Source: Bacilli bacterium
GTDB lineage: Bacteria; Bacillota_I; Bacilli_A; ML615J-28; CAG-698
Reading direction: 5' to 3'
DNA: 64,000 nt
Assembly (NCBI GenBank): GCA_045598145.1
Contig: JAZLLM010000085.1
Span: forward strand, 7,303-71,302
Shown here: in pieces, positions 1 to 64,000 of the stretch
How the letters are laid out: the number at the start of each line of letters is the position of its first letter
Numbering within the stretch: the first letter of the stretch is position 1
Notes under the pieces: generated by a model
Told to the model about the DNA's origin: nothing
Databases searched by the model: none
What the model saw: the letters and a program-made list of their open reading frames with translations, nothing else
Translations under genes and position numbers: made by a program

Positions 1-1399
1 GAGCTTGTTTAAAGTAAGACTTCAATTCGCTCAAATCACCTTTACTAATTTTATCCCAATTCAATGAACATTCTGCAAATTTTAACTGTTCTTCTGTAAC
101 AGTTACCCATGCATTATTTTCTTTATCCCAACTTGTTGAATCAGGAATATTATATAAAGCTTTAATGAAGGCAGTTAATTCTTCTTCACCACGATGACAA
201 ACACGATATTTACCTACCATACGATTATTATGTTTAATACCTTGTTTGTATTCATCTTTCGTTACATAACAACATTCACCATAATTATCAATAACTCTAA
301 CTTTACTATTATCAGATGTCATTTTAGGTTCATTAGAACAGAAAAATGTAATTTTGTCGTGAAAATCAATTTCGCTATTTTCAGGTGAACCAAGATAATA
401 AGTAATTTGCTGTGTTACAATATTATCTTTTTGCATTGTATAGTTTGGTTCGTTAGTTAATTCACGACCAGTAAGTTCTTTAATTTTATTTTTGTCAGGA
501 TTAATTGATTCTACTTGTAATGAAGCAATACCGATATATCTTTTAAAATCAGATACATTTTCTGTAGATTTTTTACCAATTTGAATTGCCATATTGCAAA
601 ATTTTTTAATAAGAGTTTTAAAATTATTTGATTTTTTCGTTTTAATTAAAGTATTAACTGTTTTAATCGGTTTTGGATCGATTTTATAATATTTTTGAAC
701 ACAATCTTTTACATATGCAAGAGAATTTGGAATTTCAAAAGAAGGAAACATTCCAAGAGGAGCTTTTGCAGAAGAATGGTTTGCTTTTGTTTGAAAATAG
801 TATTCGTTTTCACCATTTTCTCCATATTCAACTCTTGTCATTAAAACAATAGAATAAAACGATTCTGGTGGATTTTTCTGTAATTTTTTACCAATAACTG
901 AAAATACTTTCTTTTCAGAACCATCGGGTTGTGTAACCATCATCGTATGTCCCATAATAAATACAATTTGATCAGGACGTAATAAAGTATTACATAACAT
1001 ATTTAATTCAATAACGTCATTTGCAATATCTCTCCACTGATCAAATGTCATTTTCTTTCTATCGTTAAATTCTCGCATTGCAAGATAACAATTAATAGTA
1101 TCAATAGAAATCGTTTTAATCTCTGGTTGTTTTGCGATAAATTGCAAAATTTGTTTTAATTGATTAAAATCTGTAGGTTCTGAATAATTTCTTTGTTCTC
1201 TACCCCACATACCAGCTGGAAACGGTAAATCTTTTCCATCTAAATTAATAATGAAATGTGTTTTAGGATCTAAACCTTGATACAACTTCATATCAAATTC
1301 CATATTATCATTTAGTGGTAATTTACCATTTGAACCAACTATAGTTGCGGTTGTTTTACCGTCACCGCTATCCCCAAGAATTGCAACAATTTTTGCCAT
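1..1399 (-). CDS. P-loop NTPase (RecA-like/AAA_24-like), N-terminal ~466 aa; 3' end lies beyond window start
   Basis: Minus-strand ATG at 1397-1399. The frame is open to position 1, and no complete ORF is listed there, consistent with it running off the window. N-terminus MAKIVAILGDSGDGKTTATIVG is a Walker A motif; a later hydrophobic stretch IVFIMGH looks like a Walker B strand. Overlaps the helicase gene's 3' end by ~60 nt in another frame. Confidence 0.5.
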   Translation of the reverse strand, partial: MAKIVAILGDSGDGKTTATIVGSNGKLPLNDNMEFDMKLYQGLDPKTHFIINLDGKDLPFPAGMWGREQRNYSEPTDFNQLKQILQFIAKQPEIKTISIDTINCYLAMREFNDRKKMTFDQWRDIANDVIELNMLCNTLLRPDQIVFIMGHTMMVTQPDGSEKKVFSVIGKKLQKNPPESFYSIVLMTRVEYGENGENEYYFQTKANHSSAKAPLGMFPSFEIPNSLAYVKDCVQKYYKIDPKPIKTVNTLIKTKKSNNFKTLIKKFCNMAIQIGKKSTENVSDFKRYIGIASLQVESINPDKNKIKELTGRELTNEPNYTMQKDNIVTQQITYYLGSPENSEIDFHDKITFFCSNEPKMTSDNSKVRVIDNYGECCYVTKDEYKQGIKHNNRMVGKYRVCHRGEEELTAFIKALYNIPDSTSWDKENNAWVTVTEEQLKFAECSLNWDKISKGDLSELKSYFKQA

Positions 1400-2547
1400 A
1401 ATTTTTTAGTTTTAGTTTTTGTTTTAATTAATAAATTAACCGTACGTATTTTTTCAATAGTGTTATAAAATGTTTGAATTTGTGGATCGTTAGGTAATGG
1501 TAATTCTTGAAAGAAATTCACAGCACCGTCGAAATATAAAGGACAAATACCATTTTGATCACCTTCACGATTAACAATTACTTCTAAAAATCTAATATTA
1601 TTACGAAATTTAGTTATATCGTAACCTAAATATTCTTTTATTTCGTGACGAAACGGACTAAATAAACCTAACATAATATCAACATCTCTTGCAATAGTTT
1701 TAGAATCTCCTAAACCATTAGCACTTGGTCTTAATTTTTTAAGTTTAAAGTTTTCAGAAGATTCCACATCAGCTGCTTGTTGAACAATTTCAACAGGACT
1801 AATATTATATCTATTACGAAGTTTTACAAGATATGAAGATAGTAAATCCATTGATTGTTTTAAACTCAAACCACTTTCAGTTTGTACTAATCCTAAATGA
1901 TCAATAATCGGAATAAAATAATTATCTGGATCATTTGGTTCATAATAATCAAAAGCTTCAACTTGTTCTTTTTCGCCAGTGAATTTATTAGTTATAGTAG
2001 TATTTTTGTAATGTGTTTTACCATTTTCTATAATGTACGATTCTAACGATTTTTTAATACCTGTAGGATGTCTTTCAGGTCTAAATTCTACACATTTATA
2101 ATAAAAATCCATTATAGATGAATACGGTTCTTGTTTTAATAAATTAAGAATACTTTCATCTAATGGTTTATTTGATTTAGTAGATTTTAAATCTTTAGTT
2201 GTAATATGTATTTTACCTTGCGAACATCTATATAACAAATACGATATAAATCTTAATGTTATATTTTCTTGAGATTCTTCAAGATTATAATAATAAATTT
2301 TTATTCGTACCTGTTCAGCATGTTCGTAGGCATATAAAAGAGTATTATATAAAAATATATAATTAGCAACTTGAGTTTTTCCTATTTTAGTATTCGCAGT
2401 AATCATATATAATTTACCGTGCTCAATACCAACAAAATCATTACTAAATCTAATAAAAGGAGAGGGAATACAATTGATTCTACCGTCAAGAATATTTTGT
2501 CTTCTTTGTTGTAGAAAACTAATTAGTGAGTTATAATTTTCATTCAT
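1339..2547 (-). CDS. DnaB-like replicative helicase (RecA-fold C-terminal domain)
   Basis: 402 aa. LYMITANTKIGKTQVANYI resembles the DnaB Walker A region (LIIIAARPSMGKTAFALN). IIDHLGLVQ resembles the DnaB H3 strand. GDSKTIARDVDIMLGLF resembles DnaB SGSIEQDADLIMFIYR. By-eye motif matching only. Confidence 0.6.
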   Translation of the reverse strand: MNENYNSLISFLQQRRQNILDGRINCIPSPFIRFSNDFVGIEHGKLYMITANTKIGKTQVANYIFLYNTLLYAYEHAEQVRIKIYYYNLEESQENITLRFISYLLYRCSQGKIHITTKDLKSTKSNKPLDESILNLLKQEPYSSIMDFYYKCVEFRPERHPTGIKKSLESYIIENGKTHYKNTTITNKFTGEKEQVEAFDYYEPNDPDNYFIPIIDHLGLVQTESGLSLKQSMDLLSSYLVKLRNRYNISPVEIVQQAADVESSENFKLKKLRPSANGLGDSKTIARDVDIMLGLFSPFRHEIKEYLGYDITKFRNNIRFLEVIVNREGDQNGICPLYFDGAVNFFQELPLPNDPQIQTFYNTIEKIRTVNLLIKTKTKTKKLWQKLLQFLGIAVTVKQPQL

Positions 2548-3362: not shown

Positions 3363-3390
3363 ATCTCCTATTCCCGCAAATGGGAATAGG
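3363..3390 (-). terminator. rho-independent terminator (11-bp perfect stem CTCCTATTCCC/GGGAATAGGAG) downstream of lysin gene
   Basis: Perfect inverted repeat with 6-nt loop. On the minus strand it is followed by TTTTATTAC. Confidence 0.55.
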
Positions 3391-3411
3391 AGAATAATAC
3401 TAATTTTTGTT

Positions 3412-3938: not shown

Positions 3939-4127
3939 TTAATTTGTTCTAATTGTACGATATCTATTAATACATTGCTGTACCGTAAATTTCGTACTAT
4001 TTTCACTTAAATAATTAATTTTATCGATAACTTTTGAGATAGCATCCTTCATACTATTTTTACGATTAGTAATTGCTTGAAGAATAAGACGATCTTGTTT
4101 TTTGTTAAATTTTGATGTAAAAAGCAT
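3939..4127 (-). CDS. small hypothetical protein
   Basis: 62-aa ORF immediately upstream of the lysin gene; basic, no TM. Confidence 0.3.
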   Translation of the reverse strand: MLFTSKFNKKQDRLILQAITNRKNSMKDAISKVIDKINYLSENSTKFTVQQCINRYRTIRTN

Positions 4128-4146: not shown

Positions 4147-4968
4147 TTAAAAGATTTTATATAATGTTATATTATTATATTGTGAAATATCCCAATTTTT
4201 ATAAGAATTAGTAATAACTACTTTATCAAAAGTATTAGATAGTTTTTGTAAACCTTCTTCGTTAACAACATGTGTTACAGCAATATTAATAGGAATTGAC
4301 CATATTTTTCTTAATTGTTTAGCAATAGAAATAAATGTATTACCACCATCACATAAATCATCAATTAAGAGAATACTTTCTGGTTGAAAATCACGTTCAA
4401 TTTGTGTTAACGTTATATCTTGTTCAATAAATTTAATTTTACCAGTAGATAAATCACGTACTTTCTTAAATGTCATATATGGATTATTGCTATAATGTCG
4501 CAAATATCTTTGATATGCACCATGATCAGGAAAGCACATAATAGTATTTTTATCTATTAATAAATTACCAACATGTGTATATGGTAAATAAATACTATTA
4601 TTAATAAACGTTGTTGTTTTAGAAGAATGAGGTTCTAAAATATTAACTACTTGCGGTTTTAAATTATTAATAATATTACTGACAATTTGTAAACTACAAG
4701 ATTCATTAAAAGACATTAGTCTATCCATACGCATACTCATAAGATAAGTAATTTCTAATTGCCATTCAATTAAATGTCTATTTAATATATCACCTATCTG
4801 CATAAGAATAAATAAATCATTTGCTGAAACAATACGCATACGAATACAATATGTTTCTTTATGATCTATAACGTCTTCAAATACAAAATGTTGTTCACCG
4901 TCTTTAAAATTAATAATTTTAAATTTAATATCTGATAATTCTGGATTTAATAAATTAATAATGTTCAT
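4147..4968 (-). CDS. ribose-phosphate pyrophosphokinase (Prs/PRPP synthetase)-like phosphoribosyltransferase; candidate ADPR-PP synthetase (Adps-like)
   Basis: 273 aa. C-terminal PRTase motif SILLIDDLCDGGNTF resembles Prs VLVDDMIDTGGTL. TYLMSMRMDR resembles Prs PYFGYARQDR. N-terminus LNPELSDI..FKDGEQ resembles Prs GNATPELAQ..FSDGE. The R5P-binding DLHA..QIQGFF region is diverged (EPHSSKTTTF). ATGA overlap with the upstream NAMPT-like gene. Confidence 0.65.
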   Translation of the reverse strand: MNIINLLNPELSDIKFKIINFKDGEQHFVFEDVIDHKETYCIRMRIVSANDLFILMQIGDILNRHLIEWQLEITYLMSMRMDRLMSFNESCSLQIVSNIINNLKPQVVNILEPHSSKTTTFINNSIYLPYTHVGNLLIDKNTIMCFPDHGAYQRYLRHYSNNPYMTFKKVRDLSTGKIKFIEQDITLTQIERDFQPESILLIDDLCDGGNTFISIAKQLRKIWSIPINIAVTHVVNEEGLQKLSNTFDKVVITNSYKNWDISQYNNITLYKIF

Positions 4969-6482
4969 TTTATTGAATTTAAAACATTTTTACGAATTTC
5001 AGTTAATGATGTTTCTTTAGTTATTTGACCATTTTTAAATACAGTTTGTAAACAACCACGTTTTTCAAGTTGTTTATTTACTTGATCTGTAGCAAAATAT
5101 TGACCATTTTCATCTTTATTAATGAAAATTAAACCCTTTAATGATTTTTTAATACCATTATCTGTTTTAGGATTTTTAAAGATTTCGTGAGGTTTTTTAT
5201 TAATTTCACAATATGTTGCTTTAACAGCTTGACCTAGTTGATCTCTTGTATTATATTGATATGTAAATGAACCGTAACCTAATACTAAGTTACTTGCAGC
5301 AAATCCTTTATCTTCAAGACGTTGATATATTCTAATTTGTCTTTCTAAGTTAATAGAATCTCCATAAATTATACCAATATGGTCATCTAAAATCTTATAA
5401 CCTTTTTCGTTTATATAACCACCAAATTCATTCCATAATGTTTCATACGAACCTTGTTTAATAGCTTGTAAAGTTTCTGTATCATATTTATTTTTATATT
5501 CGTCATAAGCATAAGTATCCCATTCTTGATTAGTATAACCACATATAATATGAACTGGGTCACCGCTATCTGGACGTATAACAACACGTCCATCACGTTT
5601 CATAATATCGTTATGTAATAATTTAGTGTAATTTACAATAACATTCCAATAATCCCAAGTATCAGATACAATAGAAACATAACCTGTTGGATAAATTTCA
5701 TTAATTAAACGTTTATATGTTTCTAATTCATTAACATCACCGCCAGCACACATAACAGAATGTTCTGTTGCAGGAACAGTACCAGCAATTAATTCTTTTG
5801 CCGCATCGATATTATAATATTCTTCTAGTGCTTCAATAGCTGGAATAGTTTCACTACCAGTAAATGCTGTTAAATGTGCCATACCACTTAAAGTTGCTGC
5901 TTCTAATCCAGCCATACCACGCATTGAAAAATCGTGTACTAAAAAAGGATTAACATCAATACCTGTTTTTCGACAATGTTCTGTTAAAGTTTTTAAACCT
6001 AAACGAGCATGTGTAGCACTTGTAACTGGAAGCCATAACTCACAAGAAATTAAAGTTTCCAAATAATTAGTTAACCAGAAAAATTCAGGTAATGTATTTT
6101 TAATAGTCATATAAGGTACTCTAATAGGACATAATGTTCCTTCAGGTAATGCTTTAATTTCAATAGGAAGATAACCTAAATCATGAAGTTTTTCAATATG
6201 CTCTGTTCCTACATTATTAGGACCTAAAAACAAATCAATTCTTCTTTTAAAAGAAGCAATTACTTCTTCTTTAGAACGTTTAAAGAAATTGTTATTAAAT
6301 TCTTTAATAAGATATTTTTTAATAAAATATTGAATACCAAAAACTACAGCACCTTCAGATGCCATTGGAAAGAATTTACGAGAACGTGGTGTTAAATTAG
6401 AATACACCATTGTAGTTCCTTTAGGATATTGATTATGATGGCCTAATTTATAACCATCTGTTGCTAAAATGATATTTTTCAT
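4965..6482 (-). CDS. nadV: nicotinamide phosphoribosyltransferase (NAMPT/NadV) family; candidate Namat-like
   Basis: 505 aa with end-to-end similarity to NAMPT. IILATDGYK vs NILLATDSYK. LPIEIKALPEG vs LPIEIKAVPEG. FWLTNYLETL vs YWLTNWIETIL. VHDFSMRG vs LHDFGYRG. IRPDSGDP vs IRPDSGNP. IYGDSI vs IQGDGV. Confidence 0.85.
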   Translation of the reverse strand: MKNIILATDGYKLGHHNQYPKGTTMVYSNLTPRSRKFFPMASEGAVVFGIQYFIKKYLIKEFNNNFFKRSKEEVIASFKRRIDLFLGPNNVGTEHIEKLHDLGYLPIEIKALPEGTLCPIRVPYMTIKNTLPEFFWLTNYLETLISCELWLPVTSATHARLGLKTLTEHCRKTGIDVNPFLVHDFSMRGMAGLEAATLSGMAHLTAFTGSETIPAIEALEEYYNIDAAKELIAGTVPATEHSVMCAGGDVNELETYKRLINEIYPTGYVSIVSDTWDYWNVIVNYTKLLHNDIMKRDGRVVIRPDSGDPVHIICGYTNQEWDTYAYDEYKNKYDTETLQAIKQGSYETLWNEFGGYINEKGYKILDDHIGIIYGDSINLERQIRIYQRLEDKGFAASNLVLGYGSFTYQYNTRDQLGQAVKATYCEINKKPHEIFKNPKTDNGIKKSLKGLIFINKDENGQYFATDQVNKQLEKRGCLQTVFKNGQITKETSLTEIRKNVLNSIK

Positions 6483-6711
6483 ATTGATTTGGAATTAAAA
6501 TTGTAGGAAACAAGAATATTGTAGCAATTATCAGAGAAATCTTGAGTGATTTCTTGGTAACGATATACTCATCATCATATTTATCATAATCTATTTTAAC
6601 AAAAATAAATGCTACTATAGATATTGATAATGCTATAAAAGCTACCACAAATACTGTTACAGATATGGTGCTTAATCGACCTAATACATTTAAAAAATAT
6701 AGTTCCTTCAT
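6448..6711 (-). CDS. small membrane protein (two predicted TM helices; holin-like candidate)
   Basis: 87 aa; hydrophobic stretches STISVTVFVVAFIALSISIVAFIFV and LIIATIFLFPTILI. Confidence 0.35.
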   Translation of the reverse strand: MKELYFLNVLGRLSTISVTVFVVAFIALSISIVAFIFVKIDYDKYDDEYIVTKKSLKISLIIATIFLFPTILIPNQYEKYHFSNRWL

Positions 6712-6712
6712 T

Positions 6713-6970
6713 TTAATTAATATTTTCTTTTGATTTCCATTTTAGTTTTGCATCTTCAAAATCATAACAATTTCCTTTTGGATGTGAACAATATGTTCCA
6801 TTATTATATTCACATGTTATACATTTAAATTTATAATCATCATTATTACATTTTTTATTCTTTTTTACTTTGGTATCTTTATAATAAAACAAATGATACC
6901 AAATATCAAATATTAACATTGTATTAGCAAGAATTAGTGCTGCTAATACAAAAAATGCTATATTGCTCAT
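6713..6970 (-). CDS. small membrane-anchored Cys-rich protein
   Basis: 85 aa. N-terminal TM segment IAFFVLAALILANTMLIF, then CNNDDYKFKCITCEYNNGTYCSHPKGNC. Confidence 0.35.
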   Translation of the reverse strand: MSNIAFFVLAALILANTMLIFDIWYHLFYYKDTKVKKNKKCNNDDYKFKCITCEYNNGTYCSHPKGNCYDFEDAKLKWKSKENIN

Positions 6971-7383
6971 TCTTCATCTCCTTTCTTCTTGAAGCATCCG
7001 TCTCCTAATTCAGCTTCAAATATTGAACACAGCGGTGATTTATATGGATACGGGCAAGTTTTAGCCAAGTCGCAGTGGTCGCAAGGGCAGCCTTCGGTGA
7101 CATAGTGGTCAAACTCGTACACTGTTCCATCAATAATGATGGTATTCTTCGGCAGTTCCTTTTCCTTTAATTTGTGAACGAATTTATTGATCTGCTTCTG
7201 CTTGTGGTTCATCTTACGTAAGTAGAACCTTTCAAGGCTAAGCATAAAGTCTTGAAATTCCTCTACTGCATCCGCATTTCTTATTTTCGATGAAAGACCA
7301 CAGCATTCTGCTATTTTGGCAAATGCTTTCTCAAAATTTATTTTACATCTGTCATTTACAATTTTTAATTTGTTACTTTTCAT
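6967..7383 (-). CDS. Cys-rich hypothetical protein (putative Zn-binding), compositionally GC-richer than surroundings
   Basis: 138 aa with cysteine cluster CPCDHCDLAKTCPYPYKSPLC...GDGC. Local GC is visibly higher (~45%) than flanks. Start overlaps the upstream gene's stop. Confidence 0.4.
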   Translation of the reverse strand: MKSNKLKIVNDRCKINFEKAFAKIAECCGLSSKIRNADAVEEFQDFMLSLERFYLRKMNHKQKQINKFVHKLKEKELPKNTIIIDGTVYEFDHYVTEGCPCDHCDLAKTCPYPYKSPLCSIFEAELGDGCFKKKGDEE

Positions 7384-7829
7384 TCCTTACCTCCTTTCCA
7401 CTCATCTTTTGTTCCGATGAGCTTTGCGGTTTGCTCATTGTAGGGAAGGCATTGTTCGTACCTATCGTTGATGCAAACATATTTATATACACGTGCTTCT
7501 ATATCCACGTGACTAAAAATAGTTGCTCTCCATGTATTGTCATTATAACGAACAACTACCCTATCAAACGGCTCAAACTTAGGCTTTTCGGGAAGTTTAT
7601 ACTCCTTCATCCAACCGTTTGCAACTGCTTCTTTGAAATCATCTGAATTGGTCCTATGAGAAGCAATTAAGCCCAATGCGTTGACATAGTAAATCATTTG
7701 ACTGTTATTGTACATATAACCAAACATGGTGCTTCCACCAAATTCATCTTTAAGGATGTGGCGAATTTCATCCGCTCTTTCTTCATTGCCGACAATGTAG
7801 AGTATCGGCTCTCTGTGTGTGTTCTTCAT
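7380..7829 (-). CDS. hypothetical protein (GC-richer two-gene module with 6967..7383)
   Basis: 149-aa ORF; ATGA overlap with downstream gene; no recognisable motif. Confidence 0.45.
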   Translation of the reverse strand: MKNTHREPILYIVGNEERADEIRHILKDEFGGSTMFGYMYNNSQMIYYVNALGLIASHRTNSDDFKEAVANGWMKEYKLPEKPKFEPFDRVVVRYNDNTWRATIFSHVDIEARVYKYVCINDRYEQCLPYNEQTAKLIGTKDEWKGGKE

Positions 7830-7872
7830 GTTTTTTATTTTTTATAAAAATACTATTTTTTTAATACAAAAC

Positions 7873-7894
7873 GGGTGCAAATTCATTTGCACCC
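7873..7894 (-). terminator. rho-independent terminator (10-bp perfect stem GGGTGCAAAT/ATTTGCACCC)
   Basis: Perfect hairpin. On the minus strand it is followed by GTTTTGTATT. ~140 nt of non-coding sequence lies between it and the upstream gene end at 8038. Confidence 0.5.
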
Positions 7895-8037
7895 GATATT
7901 ACTGCATCGTTGTTTGTCGAAGGAAATATTTTTAGTTCTCCCTTCTTTGTTAAAAGTTCTAATAACACTTTTGCTCTGTCAATTGCTTCCTTTGGAACAG
8001 AATGAGCTCCACATCCGTTCCAGTCTGATTTTATCTG

Positions 8038-58083: not shown

Positions 58084-59546
58084 TGGCTAGAAGATATATA
58101 AATACATCACAATTTAATCCGTATTCTTTTCAAGAAATGTGGGAACCTGCGTTAGCAGCTACACAAGCACATCAACAACAAATGGGTGCTATGGCAGAAA
58201 TGAACGCTAAAAGTTCATTTATTGGTAATATGATAGACCCTGAAAAAGATCCTGAGGAATATGCTGCTTGGCAGCAATATAATTTAGGAATCAATCAAGC
58301 ATCAAAAGACTTAATGGCAAAAGGTTTATCGAACGCTACGTATAATAATATATACGGTTTAACTATTAATTATCAAAAGAATATTAAACCTATTGAAGTA
58401 TCGTTAGAAAATCAACAAAAGTTTGCTAATTTGCAACAAGAAACAAAATTAAAAAATCCTAAAATGTTCTTTGCAAGAACAGCATCTGATTATTCATTAA
58501 AAGATTTTCGTAACGGTTTACCACAAATGGATTTAGTAGATGGCGATGAAGCACAAAAACAGGCAGTATTAATGGCAAGTGCTTACGCTAATGGCCATTT
58601 AGAAATGTTACCACCACAAGCTTATAGTAAATTTAAAATGTTAGTGGAAACTGCTGTTGTAGATCCTATTACTGGTCAACGTTTATCATTTGAAAATGCT
58701 TTAGCACAATTAAATAGTAAAGATCCAAATACTTTAATGAATATTATGAAGCGTACAGTAATGGAAACTGTAGGCGGAAGTCGTTTACGTGATAATAATA
58801 AAATGAATGATTATACTCAATTAAATAGTTTAATTGATAATGCGCTTATGGGTGCTATTATACAAAAACCAGATTTAAAACTTGAGGATAATGGTTATGC
58901 ACAAGAGCAATCGATTGCACAAGGTTGGGCAAAAATTGCTCAAGATGAAAGACATTTTCAACAAACTCTTGCAACTAAAAAACAAGAACAAGCAGCAGCT
59001 TCTGCAACACATTTTGCTTATAGGAACGAAAAAGATTCACATGGTAATTCACGCAATACAGTTTATTTTGCACCAGCAGGTGGTAAAGAAAAGAATTACG
59101 CATTGGCAATACAAAATTTAATGCAAGGTTCTGCTATTAGTAAAAAAGGTAGAAAAGGTAAATATGATATTAATATTACTGACGCTCAAGGTAAAAAAAT
59201 AAGTTTACCAAAAGATTGGGCAGAAAAAGCGAAATCGTTTAGTTTAGAAGTACCACTTATAGTTAATAATCAAATTACTACAAAAATTGCATTACGTGTT
59301 GATGGTAAAACATATTATTGTCAACCTGATGATTTAGGTATAAATCCTCAATGGATTAAAGCGTTTAATGATGAAGTTAAATATAACCCTGTATATTCAA
59401 AATATTTAAAAACTCCACAATATTTAACTGAAGAGGAAAGAAATGGAATTATTGAAACTCAAACTAACGTATTAGATTTAATTGTACGTGAATTAAATGA
59501 TTTAGCGAATTATAATCCGCAAGATGTTTATAAAAATGTAGAATAA
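58083..59546 (+). CDS. hypothetical virion protein
   Basis: 487-aa ORF; ATGG/TAATG coupling to neighbours. Confidence 0.45.
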   Translation: MARRYINTSQFNPYSFQEMWEPALAATQAHQQQMGAMAEMNAKSSFIGNMIDPEKDPEEYAAWQQYNLGINQASKDLMAKGLSNATYNNIYGLTINYQKNIKPIEVSLENQQKFANLQQETKLKNPKMFFARTASDYSLKDFRNGLPQMDLVDGDEAQKQAVLMASAYANGHLEMLPPQAYSKFKMLVETAVVDPITGQRLSFENALAQLNSKDPNTLMNIMKRTVMETVGGSRLRDNNKMNDYTQLNSLIDNALMGAIIQKPDLKLEDNGYAQEQSIAQGWAKIAQDERHFQQTLATKKQEQAAASATHFAYRNEKDSHGNSRNTVYFAPAGGKEKNYALAIQNLMQGSAISKKGRKGKYDINITDAQGKKISLPKDWAEKAKSFSLEVPLIVNNQITTKIALRVDGKTYYCQPDDLGINPQWIKAFNDEVKYNPVYSKYLKTPQYLTEEERNGIIETQTNVLDLIVRELNDLANYNPQDVYKNVE

Positions 59547-59548
59547 TT

Positions 59549-62500
59549 ATGGCAGATTTAACTTATATTGAAAATTATCGTTTACATAACAATACCCAAC
59601 AAACGCAACAATCGTTAGCGGCAAGTAGAAATTTTAACGATTATACATCTCTTGCAATTAAGCAACAATCTTTATATAATAAACTTTTCCCAGTTGCTGC
59701 TTATGAAGAATTAGATCCTGTATATAAACAAAACGGTTTTGGTCAATCTCGTTTTGATAAAAGAGCTCGTTATCTTGAAGATATTATTGATCCTACCGAT
59801 TTACGTGCAAGAGAACAAACTTTTTTAGGACGTTTAGGAAATGATATTGTAAAAACTGCAGTAATGACTGGAACAACTGCAGTTAACTTGTTTGGTTTAT
59901 TAACAGCTGGTGTTGGAAATGGAATTGCACAATCTGTTAAAAAACAAAAAGCTGGTGAAGATAATCAATCACAAAATAATGCATTTTTACAGGGATTAAT
60001 TGATAATCCTATTACTAATGCTATGAATGCTATTGATGATTATTTTGAAAAAATTATGCCTAATTATCGTTCTTATGAAGAACAAGATACGAAATGGTAT
60101 AAACGTGCATTTACACCAGGAATGGCTGCAAACTTTTGGTTTGATGACGTAATGAAAAATGTAGGTTTTAGTATAGGTTCAATGGCTGCAGCTAAAGGTG
60201 TAACAAATTTAGTAGGTAAAACTTTACGTTTAGCAGAACGTAAATCTTATCGTGAAGCTTTTGAAACATTAGGTAAAACATTAACACAGCCAAATATTAG
60301 TAAAGAAGTTGGAGAATTAGTACAACAATTAACAAAAGAAGGAGTATTACCTACAGCTAAACGTGCAGCATTAAACAAATTAAAACAATTATCAAAAAGA
60401 GATGAATTAGTTACTTCTTTAGTTGGTTCTTCACTTGGTGCAGTAGGAGAAGCACAATTTGAAGCTAATAACGCTTTACATGATTTTAAAGATAAAAATA
60501 ATAAATTGTTAGATGAATGGATGGAAAATAATGAAAATCATCTTTTACGTATGTATGAAAAAGCAAACGGTTTAGATGATCAAGGAAAACCTATCACATT
60601 TGAACAGTTTAAAAATAATAAAAAAGCAGAAGCTCAATCTGAAATAGATACACAAGCTAATCGTGTAGCTAATTCAGTATTTGGTTGGGAAACTGGATTA
60701 TTAACATTAACGAATTTTAGTGCATTTAGAAGATTTTTTTCTGGAGGATTTAGAAATTTTAATGCTGCTGCAGTAAAAGCTGGTATAGAAAACGGTGGAA
60801 ATGAAATAATTTCCAATATAGGTAAACGTATTGCTAAAAACGGAACTACAGAAGCATTTAATAAATTAACGAAAGCAAAAAAAATAACTGCTATTGCTAA
60901 ACCGTTAATAACAGAAGGTCCTGTAGAAGAAATGGGCCAAAATTTTATTAATAAAGCAAGTGAATTTTATCACGGTTCTTATTTAAATGAGCAATTAGGT
61001 TACTTACTTAATCCTGATTATAATAACGAAGCTGTTAATCGTATAAATGCGATAGGTAAAGGTTTAACTCGTTCTTATGGTAATATAGATGAATGGTTAG
61101 ATGGTTTTGCTGGTTCAATTATGGGTGCATTTGGTTTACCTAATATACATCATAATAAAAAAGCAGAACGTGAAAAAGATTCTTCTAAAAAACGTTTTGA
61201 ATTTTCTTTAGATAGTGGTATATATGGAGAATGGAAAAAAATTCACGAAACTGATAAGTTAGTAAATGAAGCAGTATCTGCTGTTAATTCTTATTTACAA
61301 TCTCCAGATAAGATAAAAGAATTTCAAAATACTATTGCACAAATAGCACTAGATGATAAAATGACTAGTGCTGGATTAATTAATGATCCTTTAGAATTTA
61401 AAGATTCAGAACATATATCATTAATGAAAACGATTTCTGCATTTAAAAATGCAGGTATGGAAGATATATTAGATAAGTATATCGATAGTGCATCAAATGA
61501 TTTAACTGACGAACAAATTGATACTATTCGTCAAGGTTTAAATACCACAGACGCACAATCATTAACTAATGATCAAGTACGTGAACGTATTAAACATGAA
61601 GCTTCAGATATGAAAGAATTAATAAAATCGTATCGTGAAATAAATGATAATTTATTACGTTCTTATAGTAATAATACAACTAGTTCACAAATAGATTTAT
61701 TGAGCGAAATGTTATCTTTATCTGATTATAAGTTACAACGTGTACTTAAAACAATTAAAGAAAATAAACATTTATTTACAGATTTAAATTTATATGAAGC
61801 TGATGGAAAGACTATAAATATAAGTAATGCAGTTAAAGCACTTACTGATATATTGCAATTAAACGATGAATCTTTTGATGCAGTACATGCAAAAAACACT
61901 CAAAATGAAAACATTTTAACACAAGAACAAATAAATCGTATTGCTGATCATCATACACAAAAAATATTAAATAGTTTTCCTCAAGCGTGGAATCAATCTC
62001 GTAAAGAAGAAACTTATCATCAACTTGTAGATGCATATGTAAATTTAAAAGATAGTATTGCATTAAATAATGAATTTGCAGTATTAATTAATAATCCATC
62101 TATCTTACACTATATATCTAAACAAATTTTTGATAATACTTTAAGTGATGCTGAAAAAAAACAAGTTAACGATTTAGTTTTAAAATTTAAAGATTTATCT
62201 TCTGAAGATAAAATTAAAAGTGAAATAGATAATATTTCTAACGATGCTATAAAAAATCAAGTATTGAAAACTCTTGAAAAAGACGGTAACGATACTGTTA
62301 AAAAAGTAATTAAACAATTACGTGATGAAAACTGGTGGCAATTTTATTTAGATACTTATAATAATTTAAGTGACGATGAGTTTAGTTCTCCAGAAGAAGC
62401 AAGTGAAATAAAAGAGTTAATTAAAAAATTAAAAGATGTACCATACTCTGAAGCTATTGATACATTAGAAACTATGGCAAATAGCGGTAATGTTACAGAC

Positions 62501-64000
62501 ATACAACAAAAATTCATTAGTCGTTTATTATCACAAATTAAACAAGAAAAACAAAAAGAAGAAAAAAGAAAATCAACTACTACTGAAAATTCAAATAAAG
62601 CTAAAAAAGCATTCGAGCTGTTAATGAATAAAGATAGCGAATTTAGAAAAAAATTATTAGAAGTTATATCTAAACGTAATAAAAATATTAAGATAAATTC
62701 GCAAAATACTATTTATAATTTGATATATAATGAAGATAATTTAAATATTGGATTAAATAGTAATCTATTAGAACATAAAACTACGATACGTATTATTTAT
62801 AATAATAAAAACGTATTAGATAAAAGTATATTTGTAGAAGAAATTATCGATAATAGTTCTGCTATTTTTGATGAAAATGAAATTCAATTCGATTCCGAAA
62901 TAGTAAGTAAATTACAAGCACAATTACAAAAAAAATTAAATAATACTACTTTATCTAAAGAAACTATTCAACAAATTATAAATAAGTTAAATCAAAACTT
63001 ATCTTCTAAGAAGAAATATGTAACTCCTTTATCTAATAATGATATTGAAAAAATAATTGAAGATGATAATGTTAAAGATTTATGGGAGCAATATTTAAAT
63101 CCAGAGCTTATTAAAGATGAAGAACCAACTCAAAAAACACAAAAACGCAAAAGTGGAAATACGGTAGAGTTTTTTAATTGGATTATTGCAGAAGAAGATA
63201 TGAAAGAAATACGTAAACGCGGTTTAGATACATTTGAAAATATAACAAAACCTGAACTTTCAAAAAAAGAAGAAAAAGCGTGGAGTGAAAAACATTATCC
63301 AGACGCTACTTATTTAATTAAGTTAAAAGAAGATATTGATTTGTTAAAAGCATTACAAGAAAATTATCCTGGTATGAAAGGTGATATACGAACTTATCGT
63401 ACTAGAATGATTAACATTTTAAAATCTAGATATATAAATTTAAAGGACAAGATTACTCCTGAAATTCAAAGTTATTTAGATTTACAAAAATCTTTAAACC
63501 GTGCTAAAGAATCATTATATAATCATATAAGTGTATTTGAAATATCTACATTTGATAAAACAAATATAGAAGATTTAAAAACATTAGTACAAAAAATAGA
63601 AAACAATATTAACTTAATAAAGCAATTTATACCAAATATTGAATCTTTAAGTGGTGAATATAAAAACGGTATGTTATCTGACATCAATGCTGTTATAACA
63701 AATGCAGAACGTGTTTTAAAAAATATAAACGCGTTAATCGATAAACTATCTGAAGAAACAGGAGAAAACCTAAATAATGGTGGACAACCTAAGAAAAGTA
63801 CAAAAGAAAGAATACCTTACAATGTTGATGCTGTATCTGAAGAAGATTGGTATGGTGTTAGAGATAAAGAAAAAAAGCATACCCATTCAAATTCAAAATG
63901 GGAAGAATCTTCGAGATTAGCAAATAGATTGGAACAAGATAGAATAATTCATACGTTTTTAACACGATTTGGTGCTTATTTATTCAAAGATAAAGGACGA
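59549..64000 (+). CDS. giant virion protein, >1484 aa, 3' end beyond window
   Basis: ATG at 59549; open frame to the window end (no complete ORF listed here). Predominantly helical K/E-rich sequence with glycine-zipper hydrophobic segments near the N-terminus (TAVMTGTTAVNLFGLLTAGVGNGIAQS). Confidence 0.5.
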   Translation, partial: MADLTYIENYRLHNNTQQTQQSLAASRNFNDYTSLAIKQQSLYNKLFPVAAYEELDPVYKQNGFGQSRFDKRARYLEDIIDPTDLRAREQTFLGRLGNDIVKTAVMTGTTAVNLFGLLTAGVGNGIAQSVKKQKAGEDNQSQNNAFLQGLIDNPITNAMNAIDDYFEKIMPNYRSYEEQDTKWYKRAFTPGMAANFWFDDVMKNVGFSIGSMAAAKGVTNLVGKTLRLAERKSYREAFETLGKTLTQPNISKEVGELVQQLTKEGVLPTAKRAALNKLKQLSKRDELVTSLVGSSLGAVGEAQFEANNALHDFKDKNNKLLDEWMENNENHLLRMYEKANGLDDQGKPITFEQFKNNKKAEAQSEIDTQANRVANSVFGWETGLLTLTNFSAFRRFFSGGFRNFNAAAVKAGIENGGNEIISNIGKRIAKNGTTEAFNKLTKAKKITAIAKPLITEGPVEEMGQNFINKASEFYHGSYLNEQLGYLLNPDYNNEAVNRINAIGKGLTRSYGNIDEWLDGFAGSIMGAFGLPNIHHNKKAEREKDSSKKRFEFSLDSGIYGEWKKIHETDKLVNEAVSAVNSYLQSPDKIKEFQNTIAQIALDDKMTSAGLINDPLEFKDSEHISLMKTISAFKNAGMEDILDKYIDSASNDLTDEQIDTIRQGLNTTDAQSLTNDQVRERIKHEASDMKELIKSYREINDNLLRSYSNNTTSSQIDLLSEMLSLSDYKLQRVLKTIKENKHLFTDLNLYEADGKTINISNAVKALTDILQLNDESFDAVHAKNTQNENILTQEQINRIADHHTQKILNSFPQAWNQSRKEETYHQLVDAYVNLKDSIALNNEFAVLINNPSILHYISKQIFDNTLSDAEKKQVNDLVLKFKDLSSEDKIKSEIDNISNDAIKNQVLKTLEKDGNDTVKKVIKQLRDENWWQFYLDTYNNLSDDEFSSPEEASEIKELIKKLKDVPYSEAIDTLETMANSGNVTDIQQKFISRLLSQIKQEKQKEEKRKSTTTENSNKAKKAFELLMNKDSEFRKKLLEVISKRNKNIKINSQNTIYNLIYNEDNLNIGLNSNLLEHKTTIRIIYNNKNVLDKSIFVEEIIDNSSAIFDENEIQFDSEIVSKLQAQLQKKLNNTTLSKETIQQIINKLNQNLSSKKKYVTPLSNNDIEKIIEDDNVKDLWEQYLNPELIKDEEPTQKTQKRKSGNTVEFFNWIIAEEDMKEIRKRGLDTFENITKPELSKKEEKAWSEKHYPDATYLIKLKEDIDLLKALQENYPGMKGDIRTYRTRMINILKSRYINLKDKITPEIQSYLDLQKSLNRAKESLYNHISVFEISTFDKTNIEDLKTLVQKIENNINLIKQFIPNIESLSGEYKNGMLSDINAVITNAERVLKNINALIDKLSEETGENLNNGGQPKKSTKERIPYNVDAVSEEDWYGVRDKEKKHTHSNSKWEESSRLANRLEQDRIIHTFLTRFGAYLFKDKGR

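Follow-up and report, generated by a model that had tools for sequence, protein, structure and literature searches.

An overlapping namat-like and adps-like gene pair in a crAss-like phage genome: a probable minimal NAD+ reconstitution module

The DNA analyzed here (hereafter the window) is a 64-kb stretch of contig JAZLLM010000085.1 (GenBank assembly GCA_045598145.1) that carries a pair of overlapping minus-strand genes, one encoding a homolog of nicotinamide phosphoribosyltransferase (NAMPT, Nampt) and the other a protein with the fold of phosphoribosyl pyrophosphate (PRPP) synthetase (Prs). The contig is at least 74.7 kb long and at least 10 kb of it lie outside the window; two long open reading frames (ORFs) run off both ends of the window, which is therefore an internal slice, and all gene absences reported below hold for these 64 kb. 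Based on Pfam matches the window is part of a Crassvirales genome (Crassvirus major capsid protein, 8e-189; muzzle, ring 1-4, cargo, and tail-hub proteins) and the host of the phage is presumably a member of the Bacteroidota. A comparison with 50,697 phage records at the nucleotide level revealed no close relative and short matching patches only. The gene pair is located in a minus-strand block, upstream of genes for a glucosaminidase and a DnaB-like helicase, and this layout is syntenic with the crAss-like phages cr126_1 and Kolpuevirus "frurule". The TGA stop codon of the NAMPT-like gene and the ATG start codon of the Prs-like gene share four nucleotides (junction AAAATGAAC), an overlap which suggests that the two genes may be translationally coupled.

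A preliminary description of this DNA, made from the sequence alone, had proposed that the pair encodes NAD+ reconstitution pathway 1 (NARP1), with a conventional salvage pair as the alternative. NARP1 is a two-gene operon that encodes an ADP-ribose pyrophosphokinase (Adps) and a nicotinamide ADP-ribose transferase (Namat), is present in 4.3% of phages, and counters the defense systems Thoeris I, DSR1/2, SIR2-HerA, and SEFIR (Osterman et al. 2024). The two window proteins were compared with reference members of both enzyme families and of their housekeeping or salvage counterparts.

The NAMPT-like protein matches the Pfam families NAPRTase (9e-37) and NAMPT_N (2e-13) as well as the NCBIfam model NF006629 (534 bits, cut-off 405), in agreement with its initial identification as a NAMPT homolog. 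Its top matches in the Protein Data Bank (PDB) are the structures of the SpβL1 Namat (9W5X/9W5W, 515 bits), compared with approximately 232 bits for human and rodent NAMPT. The protein shares 51% identity with the Namat proteins of both SpβL1 and FADO, whose NARP1 operons have been experimentally validated, and 28% with a KVP40-like Nampt. The reference set consisted of six Adps-associated Namat proteins (among them SpβL1, FADO, C600M2, a Staphylococcus phage, PaoP5, and ICP1) and four Nampt proteins (the KVP40-like protein of Vibrio phage K567, two T4-like phages of the NARP2 type, and rodent). The split between Nampt and all other proteins was recovered in 100% of 300 neighbor-joining bootstraps with the window protein on the Namat side; the tree does not place it further within that side. 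Furthermore, the window protein matches 23 out of 26 Namat-specific columns, defined as columns with a residue class that is common to the six Adps-associated proteins and occurs in no Nampt, and 3 out of 30 Nampt-specific columns.

Namat has been defined by an adenine "selectivity clamp", in which a helix (SCH) carries the signature GS-X-Φ1-X-Φ2-X-Φ3-TRD with an aromatic X at positions 3 and 7 and a variable loop (SCL) gives an Arg, or a Lys or Tyr with the next residue stacking (Lan et al. 2026, PMC12774641). The clamp helix of the window protein (table 1) is the same as in SpβL1 (F392, Y396, T398, R399, and D400) and FADO, as opposed to GGGLLQx or GGALLQK in all four Nampt references. In the aligned clamp loop, the window protein appears to follow the Lys-then-stacking-residue form of Namat; a Lys followed by Tyr or Trp is found at this position in FADO, C600M2, and the Staphylococcus phage (K-Y in FADO, K-W in the Felix-O1-type protein). 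The segment around the catalytic His is identical in SpβL1, FADO, C600M2, the Staphylococcus phage, and both crAss relatives, with slight variants in PaoP5 and ICP1, and reads PA(R/A)EHST in the Nampt references. The core shared with Nampt is retained (D9, Y11, F185, R188, H241, R303, D305, and R413; the core positions in SpβL1 numbering are D13, Y15, F189, R192, D215, the catalytic His, R306, D308, and R399), and all NAD+-contacting residues are kept except for the changes D215E and A362S, the second of which is shared with FADO and the other Namat references. Judged by these signatures the NAMPT-like protein is a Namat and not a Nampt, and it is predicted to use ADP-ribose pyrophosphate (ADPR-PP) in preference to PRPP and to form NAD+ directly.

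An additional structure, solved as a "nicotinamide phosphoribosyltransferase" (PDB 9KE8/9KEO), matches the window Namat with 405 bits, displays 22 out of the 26 Namat-specific columns, and groups with Namat. The two aromatic clamp residues are lacking, with Gln and Arg in their place (GAQTYQRNTRD), and the best match among phage proteins has 56% identity. This entry was set aside.

Every Pfam and NCBIfam match of the Prs-like protein falls under the curated cut-off (TIGR01251, 68.8 bits with a cut-off of 113; NF002320, 43 bits with a cut-off of 297), and the DLHA.QIQGFF and DDxxDTGGT motifs that, together with these cut-offs, characterize housekeeping Prs are missing. In a calibration of TIGR01251, E. 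coli Prs scored 423 bits and the Adps proteins of SpβL1, FADO, and a Felix-O1-type phage scored 96–118 bits, compared with 69 bits for the window protein. An AlphaFold2 model (76 relatives; predicted local distance difference test, pLDDT, 92.4; predicted template modeling score, pTM, 0.87) displays the complete two-domain Prs fold, with template modeling (TM) scores of 0.74–0.82 to solved Prs structures at 14–20% identity, so the early assignment of the overlapping downstream gene to this fold holds at a remote level of sequence likeness. In BLAST searches the protein scored 66–89 bits against the Adps proteins of SpβL1, FADO, and a Felix-O1-type (Bas63-like) phage and 26 bits against E. coli Prs.

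A phylogenetic analysis was conducted on 34 proteins: six Adps references, five Prs references (E. coli, human, and three archaeal; the human and archaeal sequences were taken from PDB alignments and some are partial), and 23 crAss-type proteins including that of the window. The split that separates Adps and the window clade from the five Prs proteins has a bootstrap value of 100%, and a grouping of the known Adps proteins to the exclusion of the window clade has a support of 0%. The window clade is the sister of the group formed by SpβL1, FADO, and the Staphylococcus phage (81% bootstrap), and is thus nested inside the known Adps and bracketed by experimentally validated lineages. A hidden Markov model (HMM) built from the six non-crAss Adps proteins gave 144.7 bits compared with 41.9 bits for a Prs-only HMM, a difference of approximately 103 bits in favor of Adps, and this value lies within the range of true Adps proteins in leave-one-out controls (+86 to +186 bits; true Prs, −93 to −138 bits). 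The phylogenetic placement that the preliminary description had named as a way to check its reading puts both proteins, at 100% bootstrap each, with Namat and Adps and not with Nampt and Prs.

The predicted active site agrees with this placement. The window protein keeps the ATP-site residues F21-x-D-G-E25, R80-x-D-R83, and H114, and across 76 members of the clade its active-site positions either never vary or show a conservation of at least 90%. For the predicted catalytic residues K169 and R171 the conservation is at least 90%; the SpβL1 counterpart of K169, K162, is the residue that was mutated to inactivate Adps (Osterman et al. 2024). The three motifs quoted in the preliminary description (LLIDDLCDGGNTF, YLMSMRMDR, and EPHSSKTTTF) are present. 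A Ser follows the conserved His in 6/6 Adps references (PHS in five, AHS in the Staphylococcus phage), in the Prs references this residue is A, K, E, or D, and neither H114 nor S115 varies within the window clade. The entire stretch that is equivalent to DLHA/QIQGFF reads IIEPHSDVTPALINNS in SpβL1 and ILEPHSSKTTTFINNS in the window protein. In Prs enzymes the 5-phosphate is bound by the DDxxDTGGT loop, and the main site for ribose-5-phosphate is not in the DLHA/QIQGFF stretch. The divergence of that stretch, which had been noted as consistent with an altered substrate, is real and common to validated Adps proteins, but its description as the ribose-5-phosphate-binding region does not stand. 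The 5-phosphate loop itself reads DDxxDTGGT(L/I/M) in the Prs references and DDICDGGxTF or DDLSS(F/Y)GGTF in the Adps references; its Thr is present in 5/5 Prs references and replaced in the window protein and in 6/6 Adps references. No solved Adps structure was found for a comparison of the substrate pockets and the test for Adps is for that reason phylogenetic and motif-based. With a confident fold and a clade bootstrap of 100%, the Prs-like protein is assigned to the Adps clade, and it would be expected to convert ADP-ribose and ATP into ADPR-PP.

The genomic context links the two genes further. The namat-like and adps-like genes are at most two genes apart in 6/6 related loci, and in each of them namat comes first. 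Adps forms a well-supported phage clade apart from the prokaryotic Prs proteins, and 97% of its members have a Namat homolog no more than ten genes away (Osterman et al. 2024, Fig. 3C for the clade), a trait that the adjacent and overlapping window pair shares. The two window proteins match different halves of a single 547-aa phage family (phrog_12872), and a Foldseek search with the Adps-like model retrieved one such protein, a 547-aa "Nicotinamide phosphoribosyltransferase" of Shigella phage Ag3; together these matches hint that the two activities occur as natural fusions.

Taken together, the overlapping pair very probably represents a minimal NARP1 module in a crAss-like phage, as the preliminary description had proposed, since both proteins fall with experimentally validated NARP1 enzymes. 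Based on homology to the systems of SpβL1, Bas63, and FADO, the following mechanism is proposed. A host defense of the TIR, SIR2, or SEFIR type would split NAD+ into ADP-ribose and nicotinamide; the Adps-like protein (273 aa) would then transfer pyrophosphate from ATP onto the free ribose of ADP-ribose to give ADPR-PP, and the Namat-like protein (505 aa) would exchange the pyrophosphate for nicotinamide and yield NAD+ directly. The restored NAD+ would allow phage replication to continue, and an anti-defense effect of the window pair can be expected by analogy.

Several observations weigh against this interpretation. The gene order is the reverse of that in SpβL1, FADO, Felix-O1-type phages, the Staphylococcus phage, and PaoP5. 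In the literature consulted, no paper on NARP1 in crAss-like phages specifically and no assay of a crAss-type enzyme was found. Both trees are neighbor-joining trees with a small reference set, the Adps-like protein shares only 24–30% identity with the Adps references, whether validated or not, and among the six columns that fully discriminate Adps from Prs it displays the Adps state in four and the Prs state in one (F121). In the Namat-like protein, the nicotinamide-contacting Asp (SpβL1 D215) is replaced by Glu in the window, cr126_1, and "frurule" only; all other Namat and Nampt references have Asp. The remaining points on this side concern conventional salvage.

In conventional salvage the Prs-like protein would produce PRPP, the NAMPT-like protein would act as a NadV and produce nicotinamide mononucleotide (NMN), and an NMN adenylyltransferase (NMNAT) encoded by the host or outside the window would finish the synthesis, resulting in a NARP2-like or metabolic boost. 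We regard this as unlikely. The superfamilies of the two proteins are those of Prs and NAMPT, related phage records are annotated in this way, the Prs-like state of F121 fits, and Namat has kept PRPP-dependent NMN synthesis in vitro, with about half of the NMN-forming activity of human Nampt, which is why a contribution of salvage keeps some weight. The PHROG matches of the window proteins (phrog_619, 1e-51, for the Prs-like protein; phrog_448, 3e-191, for the NAMPT-like protein) cannot decide between NARP1 and ordinary salvage because E. coli Prs matches phrog_619 with 193 bits, above the window protein, and the KVP40-like Nampt matches phrog_448 with 526 bits and also passes NF006629; all three profiles were rejected as subfamily discriminators on this calibration. 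An NMNAT might be encoded elsewhere in the genome since the 74.7-kb contig exceeds the window. However, the adenine-clamp motif of the window protein is absent from every Nampt reference and its place on the Namat side of the tree has 100% bootstrap support, the scores of the Prs-like protein are far under the curated Prs cut-offs and it groups with Adps, and the loop Thr found in 5/5 reference Prs proteins is missing. None of the 61 window ORFs screened with Pfam had a domain of the NMNAT, Nudix, Macro, RyR, or NADAR type, and tblastn identified no NMNAT or Nudix homolog within the 64 kb. Likewise, no Macro-domain gene was found in the eight flanking ORFs on each side or in the wider window, and no HAD-like phosphatase or homolog of the PaoP5 phosphatase was found in the window by tblastn; an arrangement of the NARP2 or NARP1-AP type is thus not seen in the window. 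Among phages with a KVP40-type Nampt, 94% also carry an Nmnat, and no phage that combines NARP1 with NARP2 was found (Osterman et al. 2024).

A further alternative is that the pair derives from NARP1 but has diverged and changed its chemistry, acting on another donor or base such as a modified ADP-ribose or a nicotinamide analog. The Asp-to-Glu replacement (E211) that is confined to the crAss-type clade, the distance of the Adps-like protein from its nearest non-self relative (47% identity among 1.84 billion representatives), and the HAD-like, NADAR, and NUDIX genes inserted in the operons of relatives would all fit such a change. An exchange of Asp for Glu is nevertheless conservative, the other NAD+ contacts and the adenine clamp are kept, as are the Adps-like protein's catalytic residues, and the accessory genes are absent from the window, which makes altered chemistry very unlikely. 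That the genes are decaying, non-functional remnants is extremely unlikely: the high divergence of the Prs-like protein and nothing else would suggest it, and the reading frames are full length and intact, the structure model is confident, the active-site residues are invariant in 76 relatives, and the ATGA overlap is kept.

Table 1. Positions of the gene pair, its diagnostic sites, and neighboring features in the window
Feature	Position	Strand	Description
namat-like gene	4965..6482	-	505 aa; NAMPT family; nicotinamide ADP-ribose transferase homolog
adps-like gene	4147..4968	-	273 aa; Prs fold; ADP-ribose pyrophosphokinase homolog
ATGA stop/start overlap of the two genes	4965..4968	-	junction AAAATGAAC
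Selectivity-clamp helix (SCH), residues 404-414, GSFTYQYNTRD	5241..5273	-	exact fit to the published signature; F406 and Y410 are the predicted adenine-stacking aromatics
Selectivity-clamp loop (SCL), R35-K36-F37	6372..6380	-	K36 aligned to SpβL1 R40, aromatic residue next
Catalytic-His segment PATEHSVMCA (H241)	5745..5774	-	Namat-type flanks
E211, aligned to SpβL1 D215, the Asp that contacts nicotinamide	5850..5852	-	crAss-type-specific substitution
K169-V-R171, predicted catalytic Lys and Arg	4456..4464	-	equivalent to SpβL1 Adps K162/R164, E. coli Prs K194/R196, and B. subtilis Prs K197
EPHSSKTTTFINN (residues 112-124)	4597..4635	-	Adps-type substitute for Prs DLHA.QIQGFF, by alignment
DDLCDGGNTF (residues 203-212)	4333..4362	-	putative ribose/5-phosphate-binding loop; G208 at the position of E. 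coli T225; the loop is followed by an Adps-type Phe, F212
Small flanking ORFs	6448..6711, 6713..6970, 6967..7383, 7380..7829, 3939..4127	-	no Pfam match
Terminator-like hairpin	7872..7895	-	10-bp stem, then T-run
Terminator-like hairpin	3364..3393	-	12-bp stem, then T-run
Candidate type III hammerhead ribozyme	15018..15078	-	Rfam RF00008
ORF leaving the window	59534..64000	+	>1489 aa
ORF leaving the window	1..1405	-	>468 aa

Related crAss-type operons contain genes that the window lacks. A HAD-like phosphatase gene (136–147 aa) is located between the namat and adps-like genes in 3/6 related loci (positions 9487-9912 in L003, which is cr126_1; 4616-5026 in L015; 4598-5041 in L017). The three copies share 45–57% mutual identity and match phrog_1238 (3e-24) and, at 35 bits and under the cut-off, the NCBIfam model for BT0820-family HAD phosphatases. 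The published NARP1-AP accessory protein is a Macro-domain ADPR-1''P phosphatase, and a HAD-type phosphatase in the same position could therefore be an analogous and undescribed accessory. The operon of the closest metagenomic relative (47% identity; positions 2114-5816 in L015, and L016; both ENA contigs) is composed of NUDIX, NAMPT-like, NADAR (PF08719), HAD-like, and Adps-like genes, and both NADAR and NUDIX are ADP-ribose-handling domains. In another locus (L018, on a 228-kb contig of GCA_965317565.1) a crAss-type namat/adps-like pair adjoins a phage integrase gene and lies approximately 2.5 kb from the genes for ribosomal proteins L21 and L27, suggesting that this pair belongs to an element integrated in a bacterial chromosome. 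One could speculate that crAss-type NARP1 is a functionally shifted sub-family with another substrate spectrum, which together with the HAD-type phosphatase, NADAR, and NUDIX recycles non-canonical NAD+ breakdown products of Bacteroidota defenses, and that the window holds its stripped-down core; we give this idea a small chance.

The surroundings of the pair were also screened for regulatory and other features. Two strong terminator-like hairpins enclose an eight-gene minus-strand block that includes the NARP1 pair, four small ORFs of unknown function, and the glucosaminidase gene, and terminator-like sites are enriched in the region (6 compared with 1.3 expected). A scan for sigma-70 promoters gave no excess over shuffled sequences, and this consensus is unsuited to Bacteroidota. 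Among the small flanking ORFs a single weak match to a PHROG family of unknown function (phrog_3878) was identified, and the 87-aa ORF upstream of the namat-like gene, which overlaps the start of that gene by 35 nt, has the look of a membrane protein. The small ORFs beside the pair are candidates for early or anti-defense genes. Outside this block, a candidate hammerhead ribozyme (reverse complement, CUGAUGAG-stem-GAAAC) scored 42.9 bits over the full Rfam model (gathering threshold 48.5, E = 2e-7). It is located in the intergenic region between the diverging minus-strand and plus-strand gene blocks, and 35 of its nucleotides recur at 100% identity in unannotated DNA of the crAss-like phages cr53_1, cr131_1, and cr272_1, which are dissimilar otherwise.

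With the window, another crAss-like gut phage, an uncultured one, joins the 4.3% of phages that carry NARP1, and the pair leaves the knowledge of the pathway itself unchanged. It does illustrate that the published clamp signature of Namat and the Adps/Prs clade test sort even a very divergent pair cleanly, and it suggests that crAss-like phages meet NAD+-depleting defenses in gut Bacteroidota. Its own peculiarities are minor (the reversed order with ATGA coupling, the Glu for Asp in the pocket for nicotinamide, and the identity of at most 47% between the Adps-like protein and any other representative). The more useful lead is provided by the HAD-like phosphatase, NADAR, and NUDIX genes of the related crAss-type operons, which are absent from the window.

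Among the closest known systems are those of cr126_1 (Kolpuevirus hominis) and of the Bacteroides phages DAC15 and DAC17, which fall into the same clades (64% identity for Namat, 38–45% for the Adps-like protein) and share the namat-then-adps order as well as the position upstream of the glucosaminidase/replisome block. The supplementary tables of the NARP1 study list the NAMPT-like protein of cr126_1 as "Adps-associated" and its Prs-like protein as Namat-associated, and include DAC15 and DAC17 (Osterman et al. 2024). The clade of the window proteins has thus already been counted as NARP1; the pair is a new divergent member of a system whose occurrence in crAss-like phages is on record, and the novelty implied by the preliminary description was overstated. 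In cr126_1 and several metagenomic relatives a HAD-like phosphatase gene separates the two genes; the window carries them as a bare overlapping pair, and it is also without the NADAR and NUDIX genes that some metagenomic relatives add.

The validated NARP1 operons of SpβL1 and FADO consist of the same two adjacent enzyme families, with 51% identity in Namat and identical clamp-helix and catalytic-His segments, and their Adps proteins agree with the window protein in the catalytic Lys and Arg, in the PHS motif, in a 5-phosphate loop of the non-Thr kind, and in the Phe that trails this loop. The window pair differs from both in the namat-adps order with a 4-nt overlap, in an Adps identity of approximately 27–29%, and in the Glu that replaces the nicotinamide-contacting Asp. 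Where SpβL1 has an Arg in the clamp loop, the window protein has a Lys (as does FADO) followed by a Phe, and whereas SpβL1 and FADO are Bacillus phages, the window phage belongs to the Crassvirales. NARP1-AP, in which the Macro-domain ADPR-1''P phosphatase Adpp is encoded inside or beside the operon, differs from the window, where no Macro match was found. NARP2 of Vibrio phage KVP40 (Nampt/NadV and the bifunctional Nmnat/Nudix protein NatV) resembles the window pair in its use of a NAMPT-family enzyme and in the replenishment of NAD+ during infection; the window protein is 28% identical to a KVP40-like Nampt, carries an aromatic clamp where the KVP40-type protein has GGGLLQ, and is paired with a Prs-fold partner in a window in which no Nmnat was found. 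Housekeeping Prs, finally, shares with the Adps-like protein the two-domain fold (TM approximately 0.8), the F-x-D-G-E and R-x-D-R motifs, the His, and both catalytic residues (Lys and Arg), but differs by DLHA.QIQGFF in place of EPHS...INN, by a loop Thr in place of Gly, by its separate clade (100% bootstrap), and, in E. coli Prs, by a C-terminal extension that the window protein does not have.

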